Shown: positions 340 through 63,298, counted from the stretch's first letter. The stretch is 64,000 nt of DNA from an uncultured Anaerolineales bacterium (GCA_964406305.1 CAYORF010000001.1:12819-76818), one strand, 5' to 3'. Notes: generated from the sequence alone by a model not told the origin. Translations and numbers: made by a program.

Positions 340-1503
340 ATGCCCCGAGACTTTATAGCCAAACGAGTAGCTGAACTAAAACCATCTGGAATTAGGAAAT
401 TCTTTGACATCGTTGCAACTATGGACGATGTGATCTCGCTGGGGATTGGAGAACCAGATTTCACAACCCCAAAGCCGATCCTGGAAGCTGGCATCGAAGC
501 GCTCCGGCAGGGAGAGACCCACTATACATCCAACGCTGGGATCTATGAGCTGCGAGAAGCTATTGCTGATATGCTGGAAGAGAAATATCAGATAAGCTAC
601 AACCCGACAGACGAGGTGGTGGTTTCGGTTGGAGTTTCTGAAGCTCTATATTTGGCATTGACCGCGGTGACCAATCCAGGAGAAGAGATCATCATTCCCA
701 CACCCTGTTTTGTTTCCTACCAGGCGGAAGTCCTGCTGGCCGGTGGAGTACCAATTGAGGTCCCAGGTACTTTTGAAAATGGTTTTCAGCCTGAACCCGA
801 ACTGATTAAGAAAGCCATCACGCCCAAAACCAAGGCCATCTTTATTGGCTTTCCCAATAATCCTACAGGGGCGGTTGCCACCAGGGAAAACCTTCTGGAA
901 ATTAGTAAGATCGCAGAAGAACATGACCTGCTGGTGATTTCAGACGAGATTTACGACAGCCTGGTATATGGAGTGGAGCATGTTTGTTTTGCTGCACTGC
1001 CTGGTATGAAGGAGCGCACCATTACCCTGGGTGGATTTTCTAAAAGCTATGCCATGACAGGCTGGAGGGTGGGATATGCTGCTGCCCCGGCGAATATCCT
1101 GGCCGGTCTGGTGCGGATCCATCAATACACGGTAATGTCAGCCCCATCCGTTTCCCAGCTGGCAGCGCTGGTTGCTATCAATAAAGGAGCGGACGCTGTT
1201 GAAGAGATGCGATTGAAATATGATCGCCGCCGAAATCTGATTGTCACTGGTTTAAATGAGATTGGCCTGGAAACCTTTCTGCCTCAAGGAGCTTTCTATG
1301 CTTTCCCCAAAGTTAGCGGGACAGGAATGGATGATGAGGAATTTGCCCAGCGGCTGTTGGATGAGGAAAAGGTCGCCGTTGTGCCAGGTTCAGCTTTTGG
1401 GTCTGGGGGAGAAGGATTTGTGCGCTGCTCCTATGCCACCAATTACACCAAGATCGAACAAGCCCTGGAGCGCATCGCGATTTTTGTGAAAAACCACAGC
1501 TGA
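340..1503 (+). CDS. pyridoxal-phosphate-dependent aminotransferase, class I (aspartate/aromatic type)
   Basis: 387-aa ORF with an AAGGAG SD upstream. It carries the class-I blocks FPNNPTG and the PLP-lysine block GGFSKSYAMTGWRVGY. Confidence 0.9.
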   Translation: MPRDFIAKRVAELKPSGIRKFFDIVATMDDVISLGIGEPDFTTPKPILEAGIEALRQGETHYTSNAGIYELREAIADMLEEKYQISYNPTDEVVVSVGVSEALYLALTAVTNPGEEIIIPTPCFVSYQAEVLLAGGVPIEVPGTFENGFQPEPELIKKAITPKTKAIFIGFPNNPTGAVATRENLLEISKIAEEHDLLVISDEIYDSLVYGVEHVCFAALPGMKERTITLGGFSKSYAMTGWRVGYAAAPANILAGLVRIHQYTVMSAPSVSQLAALVAINKGADAVEEMRLKYDRRRNLIVTGLNEIGLETFLPQGAFYAFPKVSGTGMDDEEFAQRLLDEEKVAVVPGSAFGSGGEGFVRCSYATNYTKIEQALERIAIFVKNHS

Positions 1504-1531
1504 TTTGTTTGAGGTTAGAGAAATGAAATGG

Positions 1532-1563
1532 AAACCGCTCGCCAGTTGACGAGCGGTTTTTTT
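1532..1563 (+). terminator. rho-independent terminator (possibly bidirectional, between convergent genes)
   Basis: AAACCGCTCG - 8-nt loop - CGAGCGGTTT stem followed by a T run (1557-1563). Confidence 0.75.
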
Positions 1564-1615
1564 ATGGGATACCTGATCAGTTTTCTGAATAGCTAGAACA
1601 GAACTTTATGTCTAT

Positions 1616-2107
1616 TTAATCAAACTCAAATTTTGTGGTGTCTTTCATAAAAGCTGTCCAGGCTAGGGCTTTGGTTAGACGGATCTCATATAAAACACCG
1701 TTTTCCCACATTTCAGGAGTAGGTGAGTATCCCAGACCAGCGTATTTCTGAGTATAGGCTTTAGCAACTTTCTCTCTGAGGTTTGGGGGCGGGTTATTGA
1801 TTGCTGATGCTTTGCCTTCCCCGATCACAGCATCAGCGCCGCTTTCCAAATGAATTGCTACACTTGGATTAACGGCGATGTTTTTTGCGTGGCGGGTTTC
1901 CGGACTGCCGTCAAAATAGATCTTCCCTTCTACCATCACCGCCCATTTTGGAACCACATGAGGTCTTCCATCTGGGTATACAGTGCAAAGCCAGTAATGG
2001 ACAGCTTCGGTAAGTTTGTCCTCAACAAAATCCCAAGATAAAAGTTCCCCTGGATCCTGAATATAACCTTCGGGTAAGTGTGGACGGCTTCTTTTGACGT
2101 CTTTCAT
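1616..2107 (-). CDS. pyridoxamine 5'-phosphate oxidase family (split-barrel FMN-binding) protein
   Basis: 163-aa ORF. The central block HYWLCTVYPDGRPHVVPKWAVMVEGKIYFDGSPETRHAKNIAVNPSVAIHL resembles the PNPOx-like fold signature. Confidence 0.65.
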   Translation of the reverse strand: MKDVKRSRPHLPEGYIQDPGELLSWDFVEDKLTEAVHYWLCTVYPDGRPHVVPKWAVMVEGKIYFDGSPETRHAKNIAVNPSVAIHLESGADAVIGEGKASAINNPPPNLREKVAKAYTQKYAGLGYSPTPEMWENGVLYEIRLTKALAWTAFMKDTTKFEFD

Positions 2108-2175
2108 AAATATACCGTTGTGTCCTCCTCACGTCATCGGTCAGGACGCGATGCGGCCGCCGGTCATCGGTCTCT

Positions 2176-2979
2176 TTATTCTATGACCACGCCGCTCAGA
2201 TCATCCTCTGCTTCCGGGTAAGACATATTCAGGTTTTTGAGCTTCTCAATGATGATCGAAGAGATCACCAGGTTACGGTACCACTTCCGGTTGGCGGGAA
2301 TCACATACCAGGGGGAGGACTCAGTGCTGGTTTTTTCCAGAGCGTCTTCAAAAGCAGCTGTATACTGATCCCATAACTTGCGCTCTTCCAAATCTCCCAG
2401 GCTGAACTTCCAGTTTTTTTGCGGTTCGTCTAGCCGGGCCTGAAGGCGCTCTTTTTGCTCATCCTTATCGATATGCAAATAGAACTTCAAGATTGTAGTA
2501 CCTTCATCAGCCAGGGTTTTTTCAAAAGCAGATATGTGCTCATAGCGCTTGGACCATACCGCTTCCGGGACCAGATCGTGAACACGGACTACCAGCACAT
2601 CTTCATAATGGCTGCGGTTGAAAATTACTATCTCACCTTTTCCTGGAGTGTGCTTATGGACTCGCCATAGATAATCGTGGGCAAGTTCTTTCCGGGTTGG
2701 TGCTTTAAAACTTGCCACTTTCACTCCCTGTGGATTAACACCCTCAAAAACATGGCGGATAGTGCCGTCTTTTCCGCCTGTATCCAAGGCCTGAAGCACG
2801 ATTAAGATCTTGTGCTTCCCCTCCGCAAAAAGCAGTTCCTGCAGTGTTTCCAGTTCGCTATTCAGTTGGTGCAGATGTTCCTTGCCAACTTTTTTCCCCA
2901 TCGGGAATATGCTCTTATCATTAGGATCCCACTTGCTGAGATCCACTTTCTCTCCGGGTATTACGCGATATCGTTCCAT
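2176..2979 (-). CDS. ppk2: polyphosphate kinase 2 family (polyphosphate:nucleotide phosphotransferase)
   Basis: 267 aa with a P-loop-like block LQALDTGGKDGTIRHV. It also has FNRSHYEDVLVVRVH and the WYVIPANRKWYRN C-terminal block typical of single-domain PPK2. Confidence 0.85.
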   Translation of the reverse strand: MERYRVIPGEKVDLSKWDPNDKSIFPMGKKVGKEHLHQLNSELETLQELLFAEGKHKILIVLQALDTGGKDGTIRHVFEGVNPQGVKVASFKAPTRKELAHDYLWRVHKHTPGKGEIVIFNRSHYEDVLVVRVHDLVPEAVWSKRYEHISAFEKTLADEGTTILKFYLHIDKDEQKERLQARLDEPQKNWKFSLGDLEERKLWDQYTAAFEDALEKTSTESSPWYVIPANRKWYRNLVISSIIIEKLKNLNMSYPEAEDDLSGVVIE

Positions 2980-3036
2980 TTGATCTCCGAACTATTAAAC
3001 ACATCATGGTTTTGAATAAACAGATCCGGCCGAGAT

Positions 3037-3630
3037 TTATTTTAGATGAAGAATAAAAGTATACCCCTCTCCCGCAAATGATGCACCTTCCTCGAGGGGA
3101 AAGTCTAAATCAATTGTATGAGTCCCCTCCCAGGGATATTCTCCCTGAAATCCGTCCGAGATTACTACGACCAATTGGTTTCCAGTCATTTCAACTACCA
3201 GGACCAACTCTCCGCCGTTTCCATCAGCATCACACTCGCCGGTAATTACAAAATCCAGGTTCATTGTGACTTCGTATGTTCCCCATTCTTCTGCTAATAA
3301 ATCACTGTAATCAATTCCTCCACCACCTTGTATGAGATAAGGTGTTTCTCCCGTTGTCACGGCGAATGGGATATTTCCGACAGCATGGGGTTCTAACCCA
3401 ACAACCTCAGCGGGACCGACCAGCATCTGGACCTCTAACTCTCCTACCAGACCAGCACATTTGGATGGAATTTCTGTAGATGTTGGTGGGACTACCTGCA
3501 TTACTTTTGTTGGGGTAGGTGTAACAGTAGGATCCTCACTGGCTGCGGGTGCGCTGTTGCAGGATGATAATGTCACCAGTCCTATGAGGATTATTGCACT
3601 GAATAATGATTTATTTTTATTGCCCGTCAT
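3037..3630 (-). CDS. lipoprotein of unknown function
   Basis: AAGGAGAG SD. It has a signal peptide with lipobox LSSC followed by a Pro/Thr-rich linker. I recognised no catalytic motif. Confidence 0.6.
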   Translation of the reverse strand: MTGNKNKSLFSAIILIGLVTLSSCNSAPAASEDPTVTPTPTKVMQVVPPTSTEIPSKCAGLVGELEVQMLVGPAEVVGLEPHAVGNIPFAVTTGETPYLIQGGGGIDYSDLLAEEWGTYEVTMNLDFVITGECDADGNGGELVLVVEMTGNQLVVVISDGFQGEYPWEGTHTIDLDFPLEEGASFAGEGYTFILHLK

Positions 3631-3708
3631 CTTTCTCTCTCCTTTATGATAATTTTTCTATTTATAATTCCGGAAAATCAGTCTTCTGTCTTCCGTCAAC
3701 TTTCATTA

Positions 3709-6300
3709 TTAGAGTATAACCGGCGGATCCACTTCCACGATCCACTCCGGTCCAGGATGGTGGTTTCGTATCAGCGCCAGTGGGTTAGGTCCCTTGACCA
3801 GGATCTGCCAGCGCCATTCGCCACGGATCTTGCTAAAATAAGCTGGTGTGGGTCCGACGAGGCGGGTGGACCGAAAACCTTCCTTCTCAATCCAGCCTTG
3901 CAGGGTCACTGCATATACCCTAGCTTTTTTCTCAGCTGAATTGGGGTTTTTATCCCGGATCTCAAGCCGGATGATCTTCAGGAAGGGTGGATAACCTAAA
4001 TCACGCCGAAACTCCAGTTCTTGCTGGTAAAAATCCTCATAGTCATGGCCAGCAGCAGCCTGGATCACATAATGATCAGGATCAAAGGTCTGCAAGACTA
4101 CTTCGCCACCCAGGGGACTGCGCCCTGCTCTCCCCGCCACCTGGGTCAGGACCTGAAAGGTACGTTCAGATGCCCGAAAATCCGGCAAATTCAAACCGCT
4201 GTCTGCCAGCACAACTCCCACCAGGGTTACCAATGGCAAATCCAAACCTTTGGCCAGCATCTGTGTTCCGATTAACACATCAGCCTGATGAGTGGAAAAT
4301 TTCTCCATGATATCCCAATGAGCGCCCTTTTTCCTAGTTGTATCCCTGTCCCAACGCAAAGTGCGAACATCAGGAAGGAGTTCTTTGAGGGCTGACTCAA
4401 CCTGCTGGGTGCCAGTTCCCAAATGGCGGATACGTTGAGATCCGCATTTTGGACAGGTTTTTGGGATATTCCTGCGGTAACCGCATAGATGACAGCGCAG
4501 CTCGTGATCCGAATGGTGGGCAGTGAGTGATGTCTCACAGTGGGGGCAGCGCAGGGAATATCCGCAATCCCTGCAGAAAATATAGGTGGCGCTGCCGCGC
4601 CGATTCAGGAACAGGATTGCCTGTTGGTTCTTAGCTAATGTTTCAGCCAGTTTTTCCTGGAGCTCGCGGCTGAAGATGGAGCGATTTCCGGCTTTTAATT
4701 CTGTTCGCATATCAATTACATTCACCGAGGGCAGATCTGCCATCAGGAGGTCTTCATCCAGATCTTGATAGCGAGAGAATGTGGGATCATGAGCTGCCTG
4801 ATTCAACTGCACCTGGATGGATTCTCTGTGAGCCAGAATGCGTTCTGGGAGGGCCAGATAATTCCAATTACCGCGCTCGCCCTGGTATCGGCCGGTCACA
4901 TCAGGAGTGGCGGAACCTAAAATGCAAACCGCGCCCGACACTTTGGCATAGTAAATGGCAGCATGGAGAGCATGATAGCGGGGGGATATATCTCCCTGAT
5001 AATAGGAATCGTCATGACACTCGTCCACCACGATCAACCCTAGGTCCGGGAATGGAGTGAAAATAGCGCTGCGGGGTCCTACCACGATGTCCAGGGCACC
5101 ATGCCGGGCTAGGCGCCAGGTATCGTAGCGCTCTCCGGGAGAGAGTTCTGAATGTAACACACCAACCCGGTCAGGGAAACGGCTCATGAAGCGAGTCACC
5201 GTCTGGGGGGTTAATGCGATCTCCGGTACCATGATGATGGCTTGTTTACCGGCTGCGATGGTTTCTTCAACCGCCCGTAAATAGATCTCTGTTTTTCCAG
5301 ATCCGGTCACGCCATGCAGGAGATAAGGTTTAGAACTGCTACTTTGAAATCCTTCCAGGATCAACTGCCAGACTTCTTTCTGCCCAGGTGTTAGGTTGGG
5401 AGCTGATTGGGGAGTGATGACCAGGTCAGCAAGTGGGTCTCTCAACACGGGCACTTCAATGATAACGGCCAATTCCCTTTGGATAAGTATCTTGAGGTCA
5501 TTCAGATTGGCGCCGGTCTTATCGTAGATACCTGAAAGAGGAACGGGCTCTGGCTGATCCATGATCAACTGTAGGGCTCGCTGCCTGCGGGCTAATGCTT
5601 CAGGATAGCCTTTCCGGGCCAGATCATCCATTTGATCGTGGGCGGATTCTAAATCCCCAATGAACTGAAGTCGTCGTTCATACTTGGGTTTAACACTAGG
5701 GTCTGCCAGGGTGGACTGGCTCTTTATAATTCCCCTCCGGGTCAGCGAGCCAGCTGTTTTTCGCCAATTTTTCTGAGGTAGAGCCCGGTCAATCTGTCTG
5801 CCGCGAAGCGGGCCCCGTTTAACGAGGAGGTCCAATAACCGGGATTGCGATGGAGATGGTTCTGGAAGCAGGGGCTGGCCTTCTTCAAGTAATATCTCGC
5901 TCTCGCCTGTAAGACGATACGTGCTATCCGATTGGACGCTCAGTCCTGCCGGGATCATTGCTTGAAGGGTGACTCCCAGAGGAGACAATGTCTCTCTGGA
6001 TATATATTGAGCTAGTTCGATCTGCCCCGGTGTAACAACAGGGGTTGGGTCCAATATTTTCTGGATGGCTTTGGTTTGAGTGACGGCAGGTTTTTCGGGA
6101 AATTCAATGATCACTCCCTGAACCGACTGTCTTCCAAAGGGCACCTCTACTAACTGACCCAGCCTGAAATTTTCTTGGGTTTTTTCTGGTAGGTGATAAT
6201 CGAAAATTCCCTGCACGTGTGGAACGTTGACAGCAATACGGGCGTAAAGAAGAGTTGTCCTGTTTTCTGAAGGCATGGTGGAGTGGTTGTAGTTAATCAC
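3709..6300 (-). CDS. priA: primosomal protein N' (replication restart helicase PriA)
   Basis: 863 aa with Walker A GVTGSGKTE and a DExH box VVDECHD. The Cys-rich zinc insertions are CRDCGYSLRCPHC...CHLCGY...CPKCGS. The C-terminal block is PPF..IIRLE. Confidence 0.92.
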   Translation of the reverse strand: MINYNHSTMPSENRTTLLYARIAVNVPHVQGIFDYHLPEKTQENFRLGQLVEVPFGRQSVQGVIIEFPEKPAVTQTKAIQKILDPTPVVTPGQIELAQYISRETLSPLGVTLQAMIPAGLSVQSDSTYRLTGESEILLEEGQPLLPEPSPSQSRLLDLLVKRGPLRGRQIDRALPQKNWRKTAGSLTRRGIIKSQSTLADPSVKPKYERRLQFIGDLESAHDQMDDLARKGYPEALARRQRALQLIMDQPEPVPLSGIYDKTGANLNDLKILIQRELAVIIEVPVLRDPLADLVITPQSAPNLTPGQKEVWQLILEGFQSSSSKPYLLHGVTGSGKTEIYLRAVEETIAAGKQAIIMVPEIALTPQTVTRFMSRFPDRVGVLHSELSPGERYDTWRLARHGALDIVVGPRSAIFTPFPDLGLIVVDECHDDSYYQGDISPRYHALHAAIYYAKVSGAVCILGSATPDVTGRYQGERGNWNYLALPERILAHRESIQVQLNQAAHDPTFSRYQDLDEDLLMADLPSVNVIDMRTELKAGNRSIFSRELQEKLAETLAKNQQAILFLNRRGSATYIFCRDCGYSLRCPHCETSLTAHHSDHELRCHLCGYRRNIPKTCPKCGSQRIRHLGTGTQQVESALKELLPDVRTLRWDRDTTRKKGAHWDIMEKFSTHQADVLIGTQMLAKGLDLPLVTLVGVVLADSGLNLPDFRASERTFQVLTQVAGRAGRSPLGGEVVLQTFDPDHYVIQAAAGHDYEDFYQQELEFRRDLGYPPFLKIIRLEIRDKNPNSAEKKARVYAVTLQGWIEKEGFRSTRLVGPTPAYFSKIRGEWRWQILVKGPNPLALIRNHHPGPEWIVEVDPPVIL

Positions 6301-30170: not shown

Positions 30171-30321
30171 CCGATGGACTCAGTGTGAAACCTCCCCCTA
30201 TTCTTATGAGCTTCGCCACTAAAAAAGGTTCCGTGAATTGAGTATATTAGGGTAACTATTGGTACAGATTCCATTTTTAGGGGGTAAACCGGGATTATTC
30301 TTAGCTGGTGAAGCGGTTTTT

Positions 30322-30786
30322 ATGGATAGTGAATTATTGGCCCGTTTTGCATTAATCGAGGACTTTTCAGAGGATCAACTCGAGGTCTTAAAGCCGATCA
30401 TCGAGGATGTCAGGTTTGATATCGACCAAGTTGTCTTTAATCAGGGTGATCCGGCGGATTATCTGTATTTTGTGCTAGGCGGCAAAGTGTCAATTCGCTT
30501 TAAACCCGAAGATGGCCCGGAATTAACGGTCTCAGAGGTGGATCAGGGTGATGTATTTGGATGGTCTTCTGCCCTAGGTTCACACAGATATACTTCTTCA
30601 GCAATTTGTTCAGAGTGTGGGTTGTTTATCCGTTTAGAAGGAGAGGATTTAAAAAACCTTTGTCAGGAACATCCTGAAACGGGTATACTAATATTGAATC
30701 GCCTGGCGGGAGTGATAGCCAAGAGATTACGGGGTACTCACGAGCAAGTTTTGGCGCTGCTCCGTCGGGGATTGAATGATAAATAA
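30322..30786 (+). CDS. cyclic-nucleotide-binding domain protein (stand-alone)
   Basis: The cNMP-binding beta-roll blocks are VFNQGDPADYLYFVLGGKVSI and GDVFGWSSAL. No output domain is present. The start was moved to the ATG at 30322. Confidence 0.75.
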   Translation: MDSELLARFALIEDFSEDQLEVLKPIIEDVRFDIDQVVFNQGDPADYLYFVLGGKVSIRFKPEDGPELTVSEVDQGDVFGWSSALGSHRYTSSAICSECGLFIRLEGEDLKNLCQEHPETGILILNRLAGVIAKRLRGTHEQVLALLRRGLNDK

Positions 30787-30803
30787 CCCGGAGGGTTGTT
30801 AAG

Positions 30804-31049
30804 ATGAAAGAAGTTGAGAAAAATTTACGAACAGAACAAATGCAGAACTTGATCAAAAGTCTCAGCGCTTATATTGAACAGTATCACGGCGGTTCAGCAG
30901 AATTGGTTTCTTTTAAAGATGATGTTGTAAAAGTAAGGCTGGGCGGCGCCTGCCTTGGCTGCCCATTATCAACAGCTACATTAAACGGGTGGGTCCAGGG
31001 CACTATTCACCAATTTTTCCCGGGAGTATCGGTGGAAGCCGCTGATTAG
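30804..31049 (+). CDS. NifU-like (C-terminal Nfu-type) Fe-S cluster domain protein
   Basis: 81 aa with a GGAGGG SD. The CxxC block is LGGACLGCPLSTATL. Confidence 0.8.
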   Translation: MKEVEKNLRTEQMQNLIKSLSAYIEQYHGGSAELVSFKDDVVKVRLGGACLGCPLSTATLNGWVQGTIHQFFPGVSVEAAD

Positions 31050-31085
31050 CTGAGACAAGACCTGTTCCAAAAGGAGAAAATAGAT

Positions 31086-31373
31086 ATGGATTATTTCTAC
31101 CAAACCATTGAGATCATAGGCTTATTTGTTCAAATCTTAGGTCTGGTTTTATTTGGTGTCACTGTGGGTTGGTTTACTCTACATGTCACCAATCAGCCAG
31201 AAAAGAGCTGGCAGTTGCAAAGTATTGTATACAGTGTTTTCCTGGTATTCATTGGGTTAATGGTCAGATACCTCAACCCGGGCGCATTGGGCGCATTATT
31301 GGTGGGATTATCCGGGGCCATGATCTATTGGGGGCTGATTAAAAACCGAGTGAAAACACCGAAAAAGAAATAG
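31086..31373 (+). CDS. small membrane protein (3 TM segments, basic tail)
   Basis: AAGGAGA SD and three hydrophobic segments. No motif was recognised. Confidence 0.55.
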   Translation: MDYFYQTIEIIGLFVQILGLVLFGVTVGWFTLHVTNQPEKSWQLQSIVYSVFLVFIGLMVRYLNPGALGALLVGLSGAMIYWGLIKNRVKTPKKK

Positions 31374-32685: not shown

Positions 32686-32718
32686 AGGGACGTAGTCCTT
32701 TGGAAGGACTACGTCCCT
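32686..32718. terminator. 15-bp perfect hairpin between convergent genes (bidirectional terminator)
   Basis: AGGGACGTAGTCCTT-TGG-AAGGACTACGTCCCT. Confidence 0.75.
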
Positions 32719-32758: not shown

Positions 32759-33550
32759 TTACAATCCCAGTGTTTTATCCATCATGGCGGCAACTGCCAT
32801 GTAAACAGGGGAATCATCTCCCAGTTCAATCAGTGGCTTCCCGGTGACATCATATTCCATCACATTCTGGTCCATCGGCACAGGTCCCAGGAATGGGACA
32901 TCGATTTTATCGATCCGTTCCTGGAGAGGTGCAGGGATCTCCCCCGGTACGCGATTGAGAATGAAGTAGGAGTTTTTTACATTAATCTTAAGGTCATCTT
33001 TTAACTCCACAATGTTGTCAGCAGCAGAAAGGCCGCGCTGCGTGGGACCACTGACAATGAATAGATGATCCACATCCTGGGTGGTTCTTCGGCTGAGATG
33101 CTCCATGCCGGCTTCGTTGTCCATCACAATGTAGGGATAATTATGGCTCAGTTTGTCCAGGATATCCCGCAGATTGTGGTTCACTGCACAGTAGCAACCG
33201 GGGCCTTCCGACCGGCCCATGGCGATCAGATCAAATTTCTCACTCTCGATCAAGGCGCTGTGGATTTCATAATCCAAATAATCGTGTTTAGACATGCCCC
33301 CGGCAATGCTGCCCCGGGCAGCCCCCGTGACATTCTGGGCACTCTGGACCTGTTTTAACATATCCTCGCGGATGCCGCCAACTGTGCTGTCCAGATCCAC
33401 ACCCAGGACCATGTTCAGGTTAGCACTGGGGTCAGCATCGATAGCCAAAATGGGTTGTTTTCCTTTATTGATCAAGTATTTTATGATCATGGCTGAAACG
33501 GTGGTTTTTCCTGTTCCGCCTTTTCCTGCCAGGGCAATGGTAGTGGTCAT
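32759..33550 (-). CDS. CooC/AcsF-type MinD-family metal-insertion ATPase (second paralogue)
   Basis: The deviant Walker A is AGKGGTGKTT. Other blocks are AIDADPSANL, the CxC motif GPGCYCAVN, and MDNEAGMEHL. Confidence 0.8.
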   Translation of the reverse strand: MTTTIALAGKGGTGKTTVSAMIIKYLINKGKQPILAIDADPSANLNMVLGVDLDSTVGGIREDMLKQVQSAQNVTGAARGSIAGGMSKHDYLDYEIHSALIESEKFDLIAMGRSEGPGCYCAVNHNLRDILDKLSHNYPYIVMDNEAGMEHLSRRTTQDVDHLFIVSGPTQRGLSAADNIVELKDDLKINVKNSYFILNRVPGEIPAPLQERIDKIDVPFLGPVPMDQNVMEYDVTGKPLIELGDDSPVYMAVAAMMDKTLGL

Positions 33551-33557
33551 AATTGGT

Positions 33558-34352
33558 CTACTCCTCTAAATATTTCTCGGGATATGGTTCCAATAAAGTA
33601 GCAGCAATCCCTTCTGATGCCTTGAATATTGCAGGTACGTGGTCATAAACTGGTTTTCCCAGCCGATCCGCATCCAGTACACCCAGGTCCATAGGTAGGG
33701 TGCCCAGCAGTGGAATACCCGGGGAATTCTTTTCTAAGAAATCTCTTTCTTCTTCAGTGCGGACTTTGTTGCCCACCAACCAGAGACGGTTTAATCCGAT
33801 ATCCTTGGACAGGTCCTTGATCTGAGCCGCTGTTCCCAGACTGCGCTGCGTGGGTTCGACGACAATGACCATAGCATCAACAAAATCTACAGTGGCCCGT
33901 CCCAGATGTTCTACGCCTGCGTACATGTCGAGGATCAATATATCATCTTCCCGGAACATCAAATGTGTGAAGAGGGTTTTTAACATGGCGCTCTCTGGAC
34001 AAATACAACCAGAACCGCCCAGGTCAACACTTCCCATTTCTAACAAGCGGACACCTCGATGAGTTACGCTGAAACGTTCAGGGATATCGTCTACGCGGGG
34101 ATTGAGTGTAAAAAATCCACCCACTGTCCCAGGTTTGGCGCCAGTGCGGTCTTCTATCAGCTGGTCCATTTCAGCAATCGGGCTTAATTTTGCCTGTAAA
34201 TCTTCCGGAAGGCCTAATGCGCCAGCCAAACAGGGTGAGGGATCGGCGTCCACAGCCAGGACATCTCTGCCCTGGTCCGCATAATATTGGGCTAATAAAG
34301 CTGACAGGGTTGTTTTTCCAACTCCCCCTTTTCCACTGATTGCTAATTTCAT
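33558..34352 (-). CDS. cooC: CooC-type nickel-insertion accessory ATPase homologue
   Basis: The blocks are SGKGGVGKTT, AVDADPSPCL, LNPRVDDIPERF, the CxC motif GSGCICPE, and DMYAGVEHLGR. It is collinear with what I recall of Rhodospirillum rubrum CooC. Confidence 0.85.
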   Translation of the reverse strand: MKLAISGKGGVGKTTLSALLAQYYADQGRDVLAVDADPSPCLAGALGLPEDLQAKLSPIAEMDQLIEDRTGAKPGTVGGFFTLNPRVDDIPERFSVTHRGVRLLEMGSVDLGGSGCICPESAMLKTLFTHLMFREDDILILDMYAGVEHLGRATVDFVDAMVIVVEPTQRSLGTAAQIKDLSKDIGLNRLWLVGNKVRTEEERDFLEKNSPGIPLLGTLPMDLGVLDADRLGKPVYDHVPAIFKASEGIAATLLEPYPEKYLEE

Positions 34353-34391
34353 GTCCTTCTCCTTGCTTTATCTGTGATATACGGCAAAATA

Positions 34392-35024
34392 TTATTCTGC
34401 GATCAATTTTCCAACTAGCATACTTCCCAGGATTGCGCAGCCGTCGGTGGGTAAGTGGTAATCCGCGATATCCTCAAAAAGGATCTTGTAGGAAGGAGGA
34501 AATTCATCGTCTCCTTTCCAATACACGATCAGGATTGCGATCTGGGGGAGGATCTGGTAGCGGAATGCCCCATCTCCAAAATCGACTTTGATTCCACACA
34601 GAGCATCATTCCTGGTTTCAAACTTATCATAATCCGTCTGGAAATATTGAGTCAGTTTCTGAGCAGTATATCCCTGAAATGCGGAATTATAAAATTGCCC
34701 GTCTGCCAATTCTGAAAAAGAGATCCAGTTTCCTGTAGGAGGAGATCCTTTGGAGGAATGGAAGTAGTACATGATCATGGCTTGATGAATGGGGGGAAGG
34801 GGGTGTTGGGATTCAGTGTCCCTGGCTAGAAAATCCCGGCTGAATAACTGAACAGGTTTTCCCCAAAAGAGAAAATTAAAAAAACTCTCCCCATCCTCTG
34901 ATCGCAGAGTGGTCCCCGTTAATTCAGCCAGTTGGTTCACATCCCTTTGAAAGAGATCTTCCCGGAGTTCATCGCTCCGGCGCTCTAAAGGCTCCTGGTC
35001 TTTGTTCATGACAAAATCGCTCAT
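34392..35024 (-). CDS. DUF3786-like protein of unknown function
   Basis: 210 aa. Blocks such as WISFSELADGQFYNSAFQGY and GDGAFRYQILPQIAILIVYWKGDDEFPPSYKILFED resemble DUF3786 as I remember it. The start overlaps the stop of the upstream selenoprotein gene (ATGA). Confidence 0.55.
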   Translation of the reverse strand: MSDFVMNKDQEPLERRSDELREDLFQRDVNQLAELTGTTLRSEDGESFFNFLFWGKPVQLFSRDFLARDTESQHPLPPIHQAMIMYYFHSSKGSPPTGNWISFSELADGQFYNSAFQGYTAQKLTQYFQTDYDKFETRNDALCGIKVDFGDGAFRYQILPQIAILIVYWKGDDEFPPSYKILFEDIADYHLPTDGCAILGSMLVGKLIAE

Positions 35025-35647
35025 GATATGTTGTCCTCTTGGAGATGTTTCTGAATGGCTCGTTTTAACTCACCTGGTTTAAAGCCAAAAGGTCCTAATC
35101 CTCCGGCATAGACTACAAGCCCGTTTTTGTCGATCAGAAATAAACGGGTTGGCCAGGCAGCATAATTTTTGTTCACCTGGTCATTCATTTCGTCCACATA
35201 TGTCTTAACCCCATACTGGAGGGATTCTGCGCAATCTCCTGCGGCATTGCGTCGTTCCTCAATGGTTGTGGGGTCGTAGATCTCCCAAGAAACCTTTGAG
35301 CCAGAGAGCCGCAGTAAAATGTTCATAAATCCTTTACCGAACCACCAGCCATCTATTGGATGGGCTTCCCGGATGTAAACTTTTATAAATTGGATTTGCT
35401 CCTGAAAGGACTGGTAGATTTCATTGAGACTCACGGTCCCGTTAACATAGGGTGGTCAGGTAAAACTCCCAAAAATCAGGACAACAGGTTTTGCTCCTTG
35501 AAAGCTGCTTAATAGAATGGGATTTTCACCATTGATATCTCTCAGCTCAAAATCAGGGGCTGGATCGCCAATCTTGGGTGCGTCGGCATCGTATTTCTTT
35601 TGCCAGGAAGTTGCTTCCTGACGGTTTTTTATCGTAGCCATAATCAC
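35021..35647 (-). CDS. iodothyronine-deiodinase-family (thioredoxin-fold) selenoprotein; in-frame UGA at 35456-35458
   Basis: Track ORFs 35456..35647 and 35021..35434 share one frame and are separated only by TGA plus 7 sense codons. The junction reads ...PVVLIFGSFT-U-PPYVNGTVSLNEIY... It is followed by FIKVYIREAHPIDGWW and RLFLIDKNGLVVYAGGLGPFGF, the three hallmark deiodinase blocks. The gene has 208 codons with Sec at codon 64. Confidence 0.85.
35426..35440 (-). promoter_or_regulatory. candidate SECIS hairpin (weak)
   Basis: mRNA GGGAC-CGUGA-GUCUC forms 5 pairs including one G-U. The stem starts 15 nt after the UGA, and a G is at loop position 2. It is short, so confidence is low. Confidence 0.25.
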
Positions 35648-35653
35648 TTCGCC

Positions 35654-35668
35654 TGATAATTATTATCT
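35654..35668. promoter_or_regulatory. Fur-family 7-1-7 box in the leader of the selenoprotein/CooC operon
   Basis: TGATAAT-T-ATTATCT matches the 7-1-7 consensus TGATAATnATTATCA at 14/15 positions. The core GATAAT-N-ATTATC is a perfect palindrome. It lies between the putative -10 (35682-35690) and the start codon. Confidence 0.5.
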
Positions 35669-35681
35669 CTAGTAAAAATGT

Positions 35682-35690
35682 ATCATACCA
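35682..35690 (-). promoter_or_regulatory. extended -10 promoter element (TGgTATGAT) for the selenoprotein operon
   Basis: On the minus strand, TGGTATGAT lies 35 nt upstream of the GTG at 35647. Confidence 0.4.
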
Positions 35691-35777
35691 CGACCGATAA
35701 GAGGGCACTTTTCCACCTGGTAGTTATCATATATTTCTAATATTAAACCGATTGATGATGTCTTCCAAAACTGGCTC

Positions 35778-35806
35778 TTGACCTGATAATTGGCTAATGT
35801 TACACT
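35778..35806 (+). promoter_or_regulatory. sigma-70-type promoter (TTGACC-17-TACACT)
   Basis: TTGACC at 35778-35783, a 17-nt spacer, and TACACT at 35801-35806. Confidence 0.5.
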
Positions 35807-35943
35807 AACGACCGGTCAAATTTAATTACCGAGGAAATTATGAACAAGCTCAATGTAAAAATCTTTTCTTCCTGCGGATACGCAGAATTATCTGGGAGGT
35901 TTCCCATTGCTTGAGCTTGTCTAACGAAATATGACATTACTTA

Positions 35944-35977
35944 AGCTCCGGGATCCTATATCCCCGGGGCTTTTTTT
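35944..35977 (+). terminator. rho-independent terminator/attenuator in the MFS leader
   Basis: AGCTCCGGG - loop - CCCGGGGCT forms 9 pairs including one G-U, followed by TTTTTTT. It lies 84 nt upstream of the MFS ATG. Confidence 0.75.
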
Positions 35978-36060
35978 CTTAATAGGATCAGGTCTCGGGT
36001 AACTCCCGCGGCCTGTTTTTTATACAGGCAACAAGTCATCAATAAGCACAAGGAATTAAA

Positions 36061-37320
36061 ATGTTGTTCAGTAATTCAATGAAGAGAGTAAATTCGATCT
36101 ACCGAGAATACCCCAAGCAGTTCTGGGTTATTGTTGGTTCAAATTTTATCGACCATGTCGGCGCCGCCTTGATCTTTCCTTTCTTCGCGCTGTACATCAC
36201 CATGAAGTTCCAGGTGGGCATGACAGAAGTGGGATTGTTGTTTGCTCTCTTCTCTGTTACGGATATGATCGGGAATATGATCGGCGGGGCGTTAACTGAT
36301 TTCCTCGGCCGAAAGACCATGATCATAATGGGCTTGATCATCAGCGCACTAACAAGCCTGGGAATGGGTTTTGTTAACCAGCTGGAATGGTTTTATGTCA
36401 TGGGAGCGGTATCTGGATTATTTGCGACTGCAGCGGGTCCAGCCCATGAGGCGATGTTGATCGATATCCTTCCGGAAAAGAAAAGATCTGAAGGATTTGG
36501 CGTGATGCGAGTAGCAATGAACCTTTCGGTTGCGATTGGTCCTGCAATAGGCGGATTCCTCGCGTCAAGGTCATACCTGATCCTGTTTATTGCGGATACG
36601 GTCACCAGCTTGATCACAGCCTTGATCGTTTATCTAGTGGTTGAGGAAAGCATGCCTGAAGAAAAGGAATCAAAAGTCAAAAAGGGCTTCAAAGATACCT
36701 TTATCGGGTATGGTGATGTATTAAAGGACAGGAAATTCATGTTGTTCGTGGTGATTTCGACGATTGCTACATTAGTTTACTCCCAGATGTACAGTACTCT
36801 GTCGGTTTTCTTAAGAGATGTGCACGGTGTTCCTGAGTCAGGCTATGGCTGGCTGATGACACTGAGTGCGGGGATGGTGGTCTTGTTCCAATTCATGATC
36901 ACCCGCAGGATCTCAAAACAACCACCGATGTTAATTTTGGCCCTGGGATCACTGCTGTATGTGATCGGCTTTGGCATGTATGGTTTTGTGGATGTTTACT
37001 TGATGTTCATGTTGGCCATGGTGATCATTACCATCGGAGAAATGGTCACAATTCCAGTTGCCCAAGCTTATGTTGGCAATGCGGCGCCGGAAGATATGCG
37101 GGGGCGTTACTCTGGAGTGATGAGTTTTTCCTGGATGATCCCCTGGATGATCGGACCGCTGCTGGCCGGATTGATCATGGATAACGGAGATCCAAACTGG
37201 GTCTGGTATGGAAGCGCCATTCTGGGAATGATTGCCACTTCGGGATTCCTGTGGCTCCGCAAGAGCCATGATCGGGATTGGACGCCTTTGATAGAGGATT
37301 CGGAATTGGAAACGGGTTAG
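36061..37320 (+). CDS. MFS transporter (drug/H+ antiporter-like)
   Basis: 419 aa with an AAGGAA SD and 12 predicted TM segments. The motif-A-like loop is GALTDFLGRKTM. Confidence 0.85.
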   Translation: MLFSNSMKRVNSIYREYPKQFWVIVGSNFIDHVGAALIFPFFALYITMKFQVGMTEVGLLFALFSVTDMIGNMIGGALTDFLGRKTMIIMGLIISALTSLGMGFVNQLEWFYVMGAVSGLFATAAGPAHEAMLIDILPEKKRSEGFGVMRVAMNLSVAIGPAIGGFLASRSYLILFIADTVTSLITALIVYLVVEESMPEEKESKVKKGFKDTFIGYGDVLKDRKFMLFVVISTIATLVYSQMYSTLSVFLRDVHGVPESGYGWLMTLSAGMVVLFQFMITRRISKQPPMLILALGSLLYVIGFGMYGFVDVYLMFMLAMVIITIGEMVTIPVAQAYVGNAAPEDMRGRYSGVMSFSWMIPWMIGPLLAGLIMDNGDPNWVWYGSAILGMIATSGFLWLRKSHDRDWTPLIEDSELETG

Positions 37321-49339: not shown

Positions 49340-49354
49340 CTTTAAAAGAGAAAG

Positions 49355-49425
<71 letters not shown>

Positions 49426-49497
49426 CTGATATAAAGAAGCTGATGGTTTCCGGCTGATAAATTTCAGCCATCAGCCACCAGCCGGTATTCTGGAAAG

Positions 49498-49569
<72 letters not shown>

Positions 49570-49576
49570 TTGAAAG

Positions 49577-49649
49577 TGCCGAGAGCCAGACTCGAACTGG
49601 CGACCCTTTGATTTTCAGTCAAATGCTCTACCAACTGAGCTATCTCGGC
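49577..49649 (-). tRNA. tRNA-Phe (GAA)
   Basis: Manual cloverleaf: GCCGAGA TA GCTC AGTTGGTA GAGC A TTTGA CTGAAAA TCAAA GGGTC GCCAG TTCGAGT CTGGC TCTCGGC A. Confidence 0.9.
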
Positions 49650-54460: not shown

Positions 54461-56566
54461 TTATTCTATCCGGACCCGCACGTCCACAGCAGCAGCGCCT
54501 TTCCCGGCTGGGAAAATCCGCAGAGGATTGATCTCGATCTCAGCGAACTGAGGAAAGTCATTCGCAAATTGGGCTAGACGGATCATCACATCCCGCACGG
54601 CCTTTATATCGGCAGGTGGGATATTCCTGTATCCTTCCAGTTTGCGGCCGGCCCAAGTTTTCTGAAGCATATAATCTATTTCTATTTTAGTTATGGGTGC
54701 TAGGCCGAAGGATAGATCTTTTAACCCTTCAACTTCAGTACCCCCCGAACCAAACATCATGACCGGGCCAAATTGTGGATCCTGAACTACCCCCAGGATC
54801 ACTTCTTGACCCAGGGGAACCATTTCCTGGACATAGACGCCTGTAATCTTGGCATCAGGTAGGGCGGCCTTCGCCTGGCTGGTGATCGTTTGATAACCGC
54901 CCCTGACAGATTTTTCATCAGCTAGATTTAACAGCACCCCGCCCACATCCGTTTTATGGCTGATATCCGGGGAGGCGACCTTAAGAACGACCGGCATACC
55001 AATTTCTGCGGCCAAGGCAGCGGCTTCTTCCTCATCCTTCGCCAGAGTCATTTTAGCTGTGGGAATCCCGTAGGCCTCCATTATTTGGGCGATCACTGGT
55101 CCGCTAAGATGGTTGTTTTGAATATTTTCCTTGATCAATTCCCTAACCAGATCTGTCTGAATATCCTGGCGAATGACAGGCTCCGCAGAAGCATATTCGA
55201 GCAAGCCAACTCTTTTTACTAGTGCAGCCAGTGCAGCTGCTGCACGCTCTGGAAAACGGTATTCCGGTATTCGGGCAGCCCGCAGATGTTCCACTGCTTC
55301 CTGGATCAATCGATCTCCCATGACAGAGATAACGACTGGTTTTTTGGCCTGGTGAATGATTGGGATCATAGCTTTGGCAACTGCGCCTGCTGTATACATG
55401 GGTGGTGTGGGAAAGATCACCATCACACTGTCCGTTCCAGGATCAGCCAGCAGAACCCTCAAGCAATCCGCAAATTGGATTGGCCCAGCAGCCGCAAGCA
55501 TATCCACTGGGTTATGCAAACTGGCAGCTGAAGGCAAGATCTTCTGGAGATCAGAGATAGTATCCGGGCTGAAACTTGCCATTTTCAATCCCCTGGATTC
55601 AAGGGCATCTGCAGCGGTCACACCGGGACCGCCTGCATTCGTAAGTACAGCCACGCGGTTGCCTTCTGGCAAGGGACACCAGGCTAGAGCTCTGGCCTGG
55701 TCGAACAATTCCTCGCTGGTTTCTGCCCGTAGGACTCCCGCCCGACGGAAGACAGCGTTATAGGCGCTTTCCTCGCCGGATAAAGCCCCGGTATGGGAGG
55801 CAGCTGCTCTTTGTCCGGCTTCGAACCTCCCAACTTTGAGGGCAATGATCGGCGTGTTCGGAACAACAGCACGGGCCTCATGAACAAAGCGCCGACCAGA
55901 TTTGATCCCTTCCAGATAGAGTGCGATCACATTTGTGTGCCCATCAGCTGCTGTAGGAACAAGCAAGTCGGTTTCTGTGACATCGGCCTGGTTTCCGAGG
56001 CTGATCAATCTGGAAATACCGTACCCCTGACCGCGGGCCCAATCAATGGCAGCTGCGCAGATCGCGCCAGAATGGGACAGAAATGCCACATCACCGGGAT
56101 TCGGACCTGGCGGAGGAAGAAAGGTAGTGTCCAACGGCAAGTGAGTATCCAGAAGACCAATACAGTTCGGGCCGAGCAGGCGGATGCCTTCTTCTTTCGC
56201 AACCTTCAGCATTTCCTGTTCCAGCGCTAAGCCTTCAGGCCCGATCTCTCTGAAACCACCAGCGCCTATAATGGCTGCTTTAATACCGCGCTTTCCACAT
56301 TCCCGCAGAGTGGGAATAACGAATTTTGAAGGAATAAGAACTGCAGCCAGATCTACTGGATCAGGTACATCCAAAACAGACTCATAAATGGTTTTGCCAA
56401 GCAGTGTGCCGCCTTTTAAGTTCACAAAATGAATGGCGCCTTTATAACCGCTTCTGTTGAGATTAGTTGCCAGGAGGTAGCCCAGCTTGGTCGGATCCTG
56501 GGAGGCGCCAATTACTGCAACACCTTTGGGATCAAAAAAGGGGGTCAGGGATGTTTTATCTGTCAT
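54461..56566 (-). CDS. ADP-forming acetyl-CoA synthetase / acyl-CoA synthetase (fused alpha-beta; CoA-binding plus ATP-grasp)
   Basis: 701 aa. It has the N-terminal CoA-binding block PKGVAVIGAS, the succinyl-CoA-synthetase-like blocks GPNCIG and SHSGA, and a C-terminal ATP-grasp. Confidence 0.85.
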   Translation of the reverse strand: MTDKTSLTPFFDPKGVAVIGASQDPTKLGYLLATNLNRSGYKGAIHFVNLKGGTLLGKTIYESVLDVPDPVDLAAVLIPSKFVIPTLRECGKRGIKAAIIGAGGFREIGPEGLALEQEMLKVAKEEGIRLLGPNCIGLLDTHLPLDTTFLPPPGPNPGDVAFLSHSGAICAAAIDWARGQGYGISRLISLGNQADVTETDLLVPTAADGHTNVIALYLEGIKSGRRFVHEARAVVPNTPIIALKVGRFEAGQRAAASHTGALSGEESAYNAVFRRAGVLRAETSEELFDQARALAWCPLPEGNRVAVLTNAGGPGVTAADALESRGLKMASFSPDTISDLQKILPSAASLHNPVDMLAAAGPIQFADCLRVLLADPGTDSVMVIFPTPPMYTAGAVAKAMIPIIHQAKKPVVISVMGDRLIQEAVEHLRAARIPEYRFPERAAAALAALVKRVGLLEYASAEPVIRQDIQTDLVRELIKENIQNNHLSGPVIAQIMEAYGIPTAKMTLAKDEEEAAALAAEIGMPVVLKVASPDISHKTDVGGVLLNLADEKSVRGGYQTITSQAKAALPDAKITGVYVQEMVPLGQEVILGVVQDPQFGPVMMFGSGGTEVEGLKDLSFGLAPITKIEIDYMLQKTWAGRKLEGYRNIPPADIKAVRDVMIRLAQFANDFPQFAEIEINPLRIFPAGKGAAAVDVRVRIE

Positions 56567-61556: not shown

Positions 61557-62324
61557 CTAGATATAAAATCTATCTTTATCTACTTCCACCCTCAGAATCC
61601 GCAGCTCTTCAGCGCTAGGGGGTGGGTTTTCTGTGATCTCGCGAGCCAGTAAAAGTTCAAATCCAGTGTTCTCCAGGACCTGTTCAACGCTTATCCCGGG
61701 CTGAACCGATAATAGTTTCATGCGCTTCTTGTCCTCGTCATAGCCAAGGATTCCCAGGGTAGTTACAACTCTATAAGGACCGGTTCCGGGAGGCAGCCCG
61801 GCTTTTTCCCTGGCTCCCGGGCCGGAAAGATAACCTGGGGTGGTAATGAAATCCACTTTTTCCACGAAGCGCAGCTTATCATGTTTCATGATCGCAATTG
61901 TCCGCCAGCAATGTGAGCCAACATCATTGCCTCCACCGCTTCCAGGTAGGCGCACCTTCGGGTGATCGTGGTCGCCGATCACTGTTGAGTTCAGGTTGCC
62001 ATAGGGATCGATCTGGGCCCCGCCTAAGAAACCGTAATCCACAAAACCTCTCTGGGCCGTTTCTACAACATCCAGAATTCCAGAAGCAGCCAGGGCTTTA
62101 TGAAAGGTCCTCCGTTCGCCAACAGCGAGCGGAAGTTCTTCCAGGATGGCGCCTGTCCCTCCAAACTCAAAAATACTTATTAAGTTAGGAGCATGCATTT
62201 TTTGTGCCAAAGCCCCTGCCAACATGGGAATACCTGTGCCGATGAAGACCGTGGAATTGTCCTCCATTAGTCTGGAGGCCGAGCAAATCATTAACTCGTT
62301 GGGGTTGTAATTGGGTTCAGTCAT
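61557..62324 (-). CDS. CoA-transferase subunit B (glutaconate CoA-transferase GctB-like)
   Basis: 255 aa with the blocks FIGTGIP, GGAQID and GSGGGND. Its start overlaps the stop codon of the subunit A gene (ATGA, 62321-62324). Confidence 0.85.
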   Translation of the reverse strand: MTEPNYNPNELMICSASRLMEDNSTVFIGTGIPMLAGALAQKMHAPNLISIFEFGGTGAILEELPLAVGERRTFHKALAASGILDVVETAQRGFVDYGFLGGAQIDPYGNLNSTVIGDHDHPKVRLPGSGGGNDVGSHCWRTIAIMKHDKLRFVEKVDFITTPGYLSGPGAREKAGLPPGTGPYRVVTTLGILGYDEDKKRMKLLSVQPGISVEQVLENTGFELLLAREITENPPPSAEELRILRVEVDKDRFYI

Positions 62325-63298
62325 TTGGAAACCTCCGGGACCATATCCTTAATTTCCTGCAGTCGCTCACTGCCGATCAAATCCAGATAGGCCTGGTGGT
62401 CTTTCAGATCATAGATGTATTTTTGAAGATAGGCCTGGGTTGTTTCTGGATCTTTGGAGGCCTCCACCCAGGATTTGATATGGGGTTCGTCTCTCTCATA
62501 AACATAGCACATCTCCCCTGGATGCGATCCAAAGGGAGCTTCAATTACAACATCTACCAAATAGTAGGGAATGATGGTCTGGTCGGGACGTTGGCGAATC
62601 TCTTCCGTTGGAATGATTTCTTCAGTACTGATCAGTAACCGCTTGGAAGCCCGGGCCAGCTCAGAGGCAAAACCGCTGATCCCGTCGATTTGGCAGTTGC
62701 CGAATTTGTCTGCCCGATGTACGTGTATTAATCCCACATCCAGGATCAAAGCCGGCAGCAAGGCGATCGGCTCGCCGGTAAATGGGTCTTCTACCACCTT
62801 GGCTGCACTGTATTTCAGAGTATCTGTGCCGAGCATGGATCTGGTCGGTATAAAGGGCACTCCCATAGCAGCGGCTTTAAAACGCCAGGCAATGGCGGCA
62901 TTGCTCCATTCTACACAGTGTTCTACCCTTCCGCTTTCCACTTCCCTTCGCAGACAATTGGAAAGTCCGTAAACTTCCATACCGATATAAGTATGGTCAA
63001 GTGCTTTGATCAATCCGGCACCCAATAACAGGTCCAGCTCATAAACTCCCTGGCCAGCCACCCGGAGTTCCTTTTTCCCCTGGCGAATGACTTCGTTGAC
63101 CAATGACTGCGGGCAGCGGACTGTGCCATACAGCTCTGTGCCGATATAATCGCCGTCATTGATGAATTTGGCTACCGCCTCCTTTTCAGTCATCCGTTTG
63201 TCTATCAGACCACGGGGTTTAGATCGATTGTGCTCCCGGAAGTCATTCATATCGGGGGGCTGCAGCATAACCCCTTTGCCAGATGAGATCACCTTCAT
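62321..63298 (-). CDS. CoA-transferase subunit A (glutaconate CoA-transferase GctA-like)
   Basis: 325 aa. The C-terminal blocks IHVHRADKFGN, PFGSHPG and YIYDLKDHQAYLDLIG are collinear with Acidaminococcus GctA as I recall it. Confidence 0.85.
   Translation of the reverse strand: MKVISSGKGVMLQPPDMNDFREHNRSKPRGLIDKRMTEKEAVAKFINDGDYIGTELYGTVRCPQSLVNEVIRQGKKELRVAGQGVYELDLLLGAGLIKALDHTYIGMEVYGLSNCLRREVESGRVEHCVEWSNAAIAWRFKAAAMGVPFIPTRSMLGTDTLKYSAAKVVEDPFTGEPIALLPALILDVGLIHVHRADKFGNCQIDGISGFASELARASKRLLISTEEIIPTEEIRQRPDQTIIPYYLVDVVIEAPFGSHPGEMCYVYERDEPHIKSWVEASKDPETTQAYLQKYIYDLKDHQAYLDLIGSERLQEIKDMVPEVSK

Follow-up and report, generated by a model that had tools for sequence, protein, structure and literature searches.

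A 64,000-nt stretch of DNA from an uncultured Anaerolineales bacterium (Chloroflexota), hereafter the window, holds four co-directional minus-strand open reading frames (ORFs) at positions 32759-35647, mapped from an ORF listing together with sequence and translation. In order along that strand these encode: (i) a deiodinase-like selenoprotein, (ii) a DUF3786 protein, and (iii) two CooC/AcsF-type ATPases (CooC-A and CooC-B). The locus is probably a single operon of two parts with different histories, the DUF3786-CooC-CooC trio, whose counterparts in sister Anaerolineae end the Wood-Ljungdahl (WL) operon of carbon monoxide dehydrogenase (CODH) and acetyl-CoA synthase (ACS), and the selenoprotein, an optional gene at the front.

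The selenoprotein gene (35021-35647) encodes ~206-208 residues, the likelier ATG start lying at 35641. It includes an in-frame UGA (TGA, 35456-35458), read as selenocysteine (Sec) inside FGSFT-U-PPY, and a mini-hairpin (GGGAC-CGUGA-GUCUC, 35426-35440) that resembles a Sec insertion sequence (SECIS) and spans nt 19-33 after the U of the UGA. The stop codon overlaps the start of the DUF3786 gene (34392-35024, 210 aa) as ATGA at 35021-35024. A 39-nt gap, with a purine-rich stretch read directly 5' of the CooC-A ATG, leads to CooC-A (33558-34352, 264 aa; GKGGVGKTT, LNPRVDDIPERF and GSGCICPE), and a 7-nt gap leads to CooC-B (32759-33550, 263 aa; GKGGTGKTT and GPGCYCA). All of these features are on the minus strand, as is the intrinsic-terminator-like hairpin (32686-32718; 15-bp stem, 3-nt loop, U-rich tail) that closes the operon, is followed by TTATTATTTA, and lies just beyond the end (32682) of a convergent M20 peptidase gene. 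The layout described in a first-pass annotation of this DNA (four minus-strand genes, ATGA overlap, 39- and 7-nt gaps, CxC motifs and 15-bp terminator) was reproduced from the sequence in every detail.

The intergenic region upstream of the operon (35648-36060, minus strand) is the presumed operon promoter region and is common to a divergent gene for a major facilitator superfamily transporter (36061-37320, plus strand); sigma-70-like matches within it are weak and no better than shuffle expectation. Convergent to the operon (30259-31373, plus strand) are genes for a cyclic nucleotide monophosphate-binding protein, an 81-aa NifU-like protein (30804-31049) and a 95-aa membrane protein, which are syntenic with the trio throughout the detached clade described below. 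It may be coincidence or not that a NifU-like gene of Fe-S carrier type lies beside a Ni-Fe-S maturation module. Further off, the minus strand encodes an ADP-forming acetyl-CoA synthetase-type protein (54461-56566; CoA_binding, Succ_CoA_lig and ATP-grasp_5 domains) and a two-subunit CoA transferase (61557-63298), which belong to acetyl-CoA/acetate metabolism and are not WL enzymes.

Conservation and ancestry of the trio

CooC-A and CooC-B have CbiA/ParA-type P-loop domains (Pfam) with deviant Walker A motifs (GKGGVGKTT and GKGGTGKTT, respectively). The best solved relative of both is CooC1 of Carboxydothermus hydrogenoformans (3KJE), which CooC-A matches at 4e-41 over residues 1-238 (runner-up match 2.8e-12) and CooC-B at 6e-19 over residues 5-240 (runner-up match 6e-12). 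The CxC motifs of CooC-A (GSGCICPE) and CooC-B (GPGCYCA) align to GGSQCYCRE of 3KJE, i.e., Cys112/Cys114. The CooC family is defined by the GKGGVGKTT P-loop and by Cys112/Cys114, which hold Zn or Ni at the dimer interface (PMC6006190). Over their full length both ATPases are nearer to CooC than to MinD, ParA or ArsA. A generic MinD/ParA identity is ruled out by the CxC motif and the full-length CooC1 match, and the earlier identification of the pair as CooC homologues, rather than MinD/ParA proteins lacking the CxC, holds. No NCBIfam model scores above its cut-off for either ATPase. CooC-A is 73-94% identical throughout the class, even where DUF3786 falls to ~40%, and CooC-B invariably follows CooC-A in the genome loci.

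These genome loci come from a scan with a narrower DUF3786 alignment (one genome per species, flanks of up to 10 kb), which gave 80 loci with DUF3786 identities of 38-85%; all but one (L011, labelled Nitrosomonadaceae) are titled Chloroflexota, mostly Anaerolineae. The matches of a profile search with a broad DUF3786 alignment are all within Anaerolineae, and thus the DUF3786-CooC link is seen for that class. Among the Anaerolineae loci with enough downstream DNA, tblastn finds the full trio, with order and strand kept, in 63/75; DUF3786 is upstream of both CooC genes in these loci, immediately so in most, and the trio occurs across at least three different upstream contexts. The four-gene arrangement recurs in dozens of independent contigs, which rules out a chance juxtaposition of the operon genes, the outcome against which a comparison across genomes had been proposed as the check. 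The trio as a fixed unit appears to be undescribed in the literature searched. In contigs of metagenome-assembled genomes (MAGs), the CooC ORFs of L005, L010 and L026 are split into two or three frames. The first of these contigs, L005, is from an ENA metagenome, and the other two belong to a single MAG series (MFD isolates); the broken ORFs are probably assembly frameshifts and not pseudogenes, although this is a guess. Two copies of the locus (L007 and L010) occur within one MAG (CAWAOV01).

Clustering of the neighbour genes, with representatives scanned against Pfam, places the trio of sister and more distant Anaerolineae at the 3' end of a long co-directional CODH/ACS WL operon (sister-clade genes: cooS, acsB, acsD, acsC, RACo, acsE-like and metVF). 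L042, for example, has on one strand cooS (Prismane), an acsB-acsD fusion, acsC (CdhD + FeS), RACo and a pterin-binding methyltransferase, followed by DUF3786, CooC and CooC. Many loci have the order acsD, acsC, RACo, (radical SAM), methyltransferase, malic enzyme, TrxR-like, metV-metF fusion and the trio, other loci have mvhD, hdrA-like, metV, metF, hdrBC-like and the trio, and in L084 the trio is divergent from cooS-acsB. The L042 fusion (1476-5363) is a single 1295-aa ORF that joins AcsB (CODH_A_N, CdhC and ACS_CODH_B_C) to an AcsD-like CdhD domain, and similar long ORFs are present in L066, L068 and L070.

Core WL genes lie within 10 kb of the trio in 34/48 loci outside the clade of the window, compared to 0 of the ~70 loci within it. 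In a neighbour-joining tree built on the concatenated trio, the sequences fall cleanly into two groups, a detached clade that includes the window and a WL-adjacent clade. Thus, a single ancestral rearrangement detached the trio from the structural genes in the family-level clade of the window. The joint move of the three genes in itself argues for a functional tie between DUF3786 and the ATPases. Pairwise dN/dS values in the detached clade are 0.03-0.19 for all three trio genes, no higher than in the WL-adjacent clade (omega of 0.03-0.08 for CooC-A and 0.03-0.14 for CooC-B in the clade of the window); this strong purifying selection indicates that the detached genes are still in use. The interpretation in the first-pass annotation is borne out in part: of its three readings, the comparative data support the one in which the accessory half of a C1 cluster was left over and took up a selenoprotein, since the sister-clade trio ends the CODH/ACS operon. 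The CooC part of the locus is ordinary, being an accessory module that was relocated but belongs to a known pathway.

DUF3786 matches Pfam PF12654 at 2e-41 (141.8 bits, with a cut-off of 27; positions 1-174 of the 176 in the model) and belongs to a large family, 1,681 clusters at 50% identity matching the window protein at E values up to 0.001. Its AlphaFold2 model is confident (pLDDT 94.6, pTM 0.89), and its conserved positions are mostly aromatic or acidic (e.g., WxGDE and LPTDxCA in the alignment). A literature search on DUF3786 found nothing relevant. From its context, the protein is probably an adaptor or chaperone, an uncharacterised third component of the same maturation step as the ATPases. 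A 763-aa protein (P0150) fuses a LacI helix-turn-helix, a periplasmic-binding-protein-like domain and two DUF3786 domains, a combination that hints at a possible role of DUF3786 in binding a ligand or partner.

The selenoprotein and its relatives

The selenoprotein matches Pfam T4_deiodinase (8e-27; 94.5 bits against a cut-off of 27), as well as AhpC-TSA and Redoxin, and its best solved relatives are the catalytic domains of mouse Dio3 (4TR3, 5e-20) and Dio2. The NCBIfam model NF038285 (deiodinase_rel, a hypothetical equivalog) is matched at 187 bits, below its cut-off of 250, and only over positions 174-345 of 347. The Sec codon is TGA in 15/15 intact homologues from the genome loci and in 78/78 metagenome loci that contain the active-site motif, with coding conserved on both sides, and a second Cys (AAGDC) is invariant in an alignment of eight sequences. 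The SECIS-like hairpin has a 5-bp stem and a 5-nt loop containing G. Among 92 distinct sequences, its five pairs are 99-100% paired, three different pairs show double compensatory changes, and the entropy of third codon positions is 0.09-0.77 bits in the stem compared to 0.9-1.97 bits in the flanking codons. The hairpin fits the description of bacterial SECIS elements, with their small G-bearing apical loop, that accompanied the original account of deiodinase-like selenoproteins in bacteria (Zhang et al. 2005, PMC1088965). The hairpin is seen by comparative analysis only, as the single-sequence fold of the region is no better than that of shuffles, and an Rfam scan of the window matched no SECIS model and returned three tRNAs only. 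The latter form a cluster on the minus strand (49354-49649; tRNA-Cys(GCA), tRNA-Gly(GCC) and tRNA-Phe(GAA)), with no tRNA-Sec in the window. Where the gene is intact, its omega is 0.06-0.20. The conserved TGA, the compensatory changes in the hairpin and this low omega indicate that the selenoprotein is real, and on these comparative signals the reading of the TGA as Sec is judged sound.

A metagenome scan with a selenoprotein alignment gave another 80 loci. The trio lies downstream of homologues of ~64% identity or more (58-97%) in the 30 loci with downstream room, and is not downstream in the 36 loci with homologues of 56-68% identity. The selenoprotein and DUF3786 genes are joined by a stop/start overlap or by a gap of a few to ~25 nt in 30 loci of the metagenome set and in 14 of the DUF3786 search, the overlap being kept over selenoprotein identities of 59-100%. 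In deeper members of the detached clade (L027-L037), MsrA (PMSR) and MsrB (SelR) take the co-directional slot 5' of DUF3786 (in L030, from 1094 to 100 nt upstream of the DUF3786 start), which suggests an oxidative-repair theme at this slot. A small ORF (c48) upstream of DUF3786 in L032-L037, considered as a diverged deiodinase fragment, is instead a small membrane protein.

One monophyletic subclade of Sec homologues, ~60% identical to the selenoprotein of the window, is found at Hyp/hydrogenase loci. In L132 (5986-11860), L144 (5986-11459), L149 and L151 the selenoprotein gene lies directly against hypA-hypB-hypF-hypC-hypD, with either 1 nt of overlap or 6 nt between them, and in L166 and L172 it is followed by a PocR regulator and a [NiFe]-hydrogenase operon. 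L142 has a trio of the WL-adjacent type four genes upstream of the selenoprotein, and L125 a CooC fragment 5.6 kb upstream. Counted conservatively, there are two independent associations with nickel assembly (CooC type and Hyp/hydrogenase type) among ~19 distinct contexts, which would exceed expectation if such loci occupy far less than 1% of a genome, this background being an estimate and not a computed census. A recurrent deiodinase-like selenoprotein at the head of nickel-insertion operons appears to be undescribed in the literature searched. Since the subfamily also abuts hypABFCD and a [NiFe]-hydrogenase operon, a redox-support role in the assembly of nickel centres is plausible rather than proven. 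The functional link between selenoprotein and nickel maturases suggested in the first-pass annotation is independently supported by the Sec homologues at these hydrogenase loci.

Interpretation and comparison with known systems

The favoured explanation, held with somewhat more belief than doubt, is that of a relocated CODH/ACS accessory trio that shares one operon with an optional redox selenoprotein. Most likely, the trio would serve as the accessory set that inserts nickel into a CODH/ACS whose genes would lie elsewhere in the genome. Ancestrally the tail of a CODH/ACS WL operon, it would have been moved off by one rearrangement in the clade of the window. By homology, each CooC-type ATPase is predicted to dimerise through a CxC-held metal and to deliver nickel using ATP. 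The two paralogues plausibly split this work, with one serving the C-cluster of CODH (the CooC role) and the other the A-cluster of ACS (the AcsF role), and DUF3786 would travel and act with them in the maturation step. The selenoprotein would be a selenol/thiol oxidoreductase of peroxiredoxin-like fold that is translationally coupled to the trio yet dispensable for it. Its most likely role would be to hold metal-binding cysteines of the chaperones or apo-enzymes in the reduced state, or to clear peroxide, while the oxygen-sensitive nickel centres assemble.

Several findings weigh against this explanation. With respect to the trio, DUF3786 stands alone in twelve Anaerolineae loci, none of which has a CooC gene within 10 kb (L047, L052, L054-L056, L058, L060, L065, L077, L079, L080 and L085); nine of these share one syntenic housekeeping context, with a 260-aa c31 protein upstream, a ~860-aa c33 protein downstream, and c20 and c38-c40 further out. 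Another twelve loci, all WL-adjacent, have genes inserted between DUF3786 and CooC-A (L044, L049, L051, L059, L061, L066, L069, L071, L072, L074, L075 and L081), among them genes for a formate/nitrite transporter, a small AsnC-like protein, an isochorismatase and a 318-aa protein of unknown function, as well as a TrxR-like gene, and here DUF3786 stays beside metF/hdrBC. The DUF3786 alignment has no conserved Cys/His metal site. Its structural model has no meaningful fold match in the PDB by Foldseek (best E 0.23, TM <0.26), and a sequence profile gave no PDB match. With respect to the client enzymes, tblastn with Anaerolineae queries finds no CODH, ACS, corrinoid-protein, RACo, MeTr or MetF homologue in the 64 kb of the window, as the first-pass annotation had reported for CODH, ACS and corrinoid proteins, and no CODH/ACS gene within 6-10 kb of the trio in the ~70 loci of the clade. 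With respect to the selenoprotein, the 32 detached-clade genome loci, in which the trio is intact, include 13 with an intact gene, 17 with none and two in which it is decayed. In addition, the selenoprotein is beside no WL-adjacent trio in the genome loci, and the Sec homologues from outside the clade are mostly in unrelated contexts, with ~15 distinct neighbourhoods.

The findings on the selenoprotein lend themselves to an alternative that is possible, if doubtful, in which the trio is as described above and the selenoprotein acts as an antioxidant or thiol oxidoreductase of general function, having come to lie upstream of the trio, where it shares the promoter but has no specific relation to nickel insertion. 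Its presence is scattered on the trio tree, from the deep L033 to the crown group, which points to several losses, and remnants persist beside the enduring trio: the C-terminal ~46 codons with an internal stop in L006 (near-identical metagenome copies L003/L004) and two short fragments in L014. The selenoprotein is not an obligate partner of the trio, the gene being missing or decayed in over half of the clade genomes. This alternative also accounts for the lack of a selenoprotein at the WL-adjacent trios, for the Sec homologues of 56-69% identity in ~15 unrelated contexts, and for the MsrA/MsrB redox-repair genes that take the same slot; the bacterial deiodinase-like family, moreover, has been described only as a probable redox protein, with deiodination not expected (PMC1088965). 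It is opposed by the independent occurrence of the Sec subfamily directly 5' of hypA, with translational coupling, and ahead of a [NiFe]-hydrogenase operon, by the selenoproteins that lie 3-6 kb from the trio in L142 and L125, by the stop/start overlap that is kept across 59-100% identity, and by the improbability of at least two nickel loci arising by chance among ~19 contexts, given a background estimated at well below 1% of a genome. A bolder reading, which we hold only tentatively and would not yet back, takes the deiodinase-like selenoproteins of Anaerolineae as dedicated redox partners of CooC/AcsF and HypA/HypB assembly (e.g., by reducing or protecting the cysteine ligands of chaperones or apo-enzymes) and DUF3786 as a new maturation factor of the CooC pair. 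In a more radical form of this reading, the clade of the window would have lost CODH/ACS and the trio would have a new client.

The loss of CODH/ACS from the clade of the window, with the trio and the selenoprotein or Msr genes now maturing or repairing another metalloenzyme, is unlikely. It would fit the ~70 clade loci without a WL gene within 6-10 kb of the trio, the undiminished purifying selection on the trio, and the re-population of the slot upstream of the trio by redox genes in this clade only. However, CooC-A is 75-83% identical to its WL-adjacent orthologues and keeps their motifs, which points to a preserved function, the neighbourhood of the trio has no conserved gene for an alternative client, and CooC genes are commonly unlinked from CODH. 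CooC is carried by 62% of clade-A CODH operons, and one case of CooC outside the operon has been noted (bioRxiv 10.1101/2025.09.14.676152). The first-pass remark on CooC ATPases that lack a client is correct for the window, but its novelty is weakened by CooC genes being often unlinked from CODH (bioRxiv 10.1101/2025.09.14.676152). Reductive dehalogenation or deiodination, in which the selenoprotein would remove substrate halogens and the ATPases would load a cofactor for that protein, is highly improbable: a module of this kind, as earlier proposed, found no support, only the Pfam name and the homology to Dio3/Dio2 catalytic domains speak for it, and it is opposed by the dispensability of the selenoprotein for the trio, the lack of a corrinoid or reductive-dehalogenase partner, the peroxiredoxin-like fold with AhpC-TSA and Redoxin matches, the redox rather than deiodinating activity expected of the bacterial family (PMC1088965), and the CODH/ACS context in which the trio originated.

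The comparative picture gives DUF3786 and the selenoprotein a concrete context that can be tested, with DUF3786 as a fixed companion of the CooC/AcsF pair in CODH/ACS operons and the selenoprotein as a recurrent, optional front gene of nickel-insertion operons. To our knowledge, bacterial deiodinase-like selenoproteins have had no assigned function since their description in 2005. If the redox-partner reading is true, a redox-maintenance step would be added to nickel-enzyme maturation in bacteria at oxic-anoxic interfaces; if not, the locus would be a relocated CODH/ACS accessory operon with an attached antioxidant gene.

Among known systems, the bacterial deiodinase-like selenoproteins (PMC1088965) share with the window protein the FGSxT-U-PP[FY] active site, a fold of thioredoxin/peroxiredoxin type and a SECIS of the bacterial kind whose small apical loop contains G, and the catalytic domains of mammalian Dio3 and Dio2 (4TR3 and 9H48) share the active site and the fold. 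The selenoprotein of the window differs in its short form (~205 aa), which is below the deiodinase_rel cut-off and corresponds to the C-terminal half only, and in being co-operonic with nickel-maturation genes, a context undescribed in the papers found. The HypA/HypB system of nickel insertion for [NiFe]-hydrogenase is similar in its nickel delivery driven by a SIMIBI-class NTPase and, in another Anaerolineae lineage, in its 5' Sec deiodinase-like gene; it uses other chaperones for another client and is not in the window. The cooCTJ genes of Rhodospirillum rubrum, which encode an ATPase and small nickel chaperones, likewise pair a CooC ATPase with a small non-ATPase accessory protein in one operon. 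By contrast, DUF3786 is unrelated to CooT/CooJ, has no His-rich or Cys nickel-binding motif, and has a fold without a solved relative. The window pair also resembles the CooC/AcsF ATPases of CODH/ACS clusters (e.g., CooC1, PDB 3KJE/3KJI), which share the GKGGxGKTT Walker A, the CxC, a length of ~255-265 aa and similarity over the full length, which occur as two paralogues in the acs clusters of acetogens, and which have orthologues within the cooS/acsB operons of sister Anaerolineae. The pair in the window differs from these in standing apart from any CODH/ACS gene in this region and in always being preceded by a DUF3786 gene, to which a selenoprotein gene is added here.

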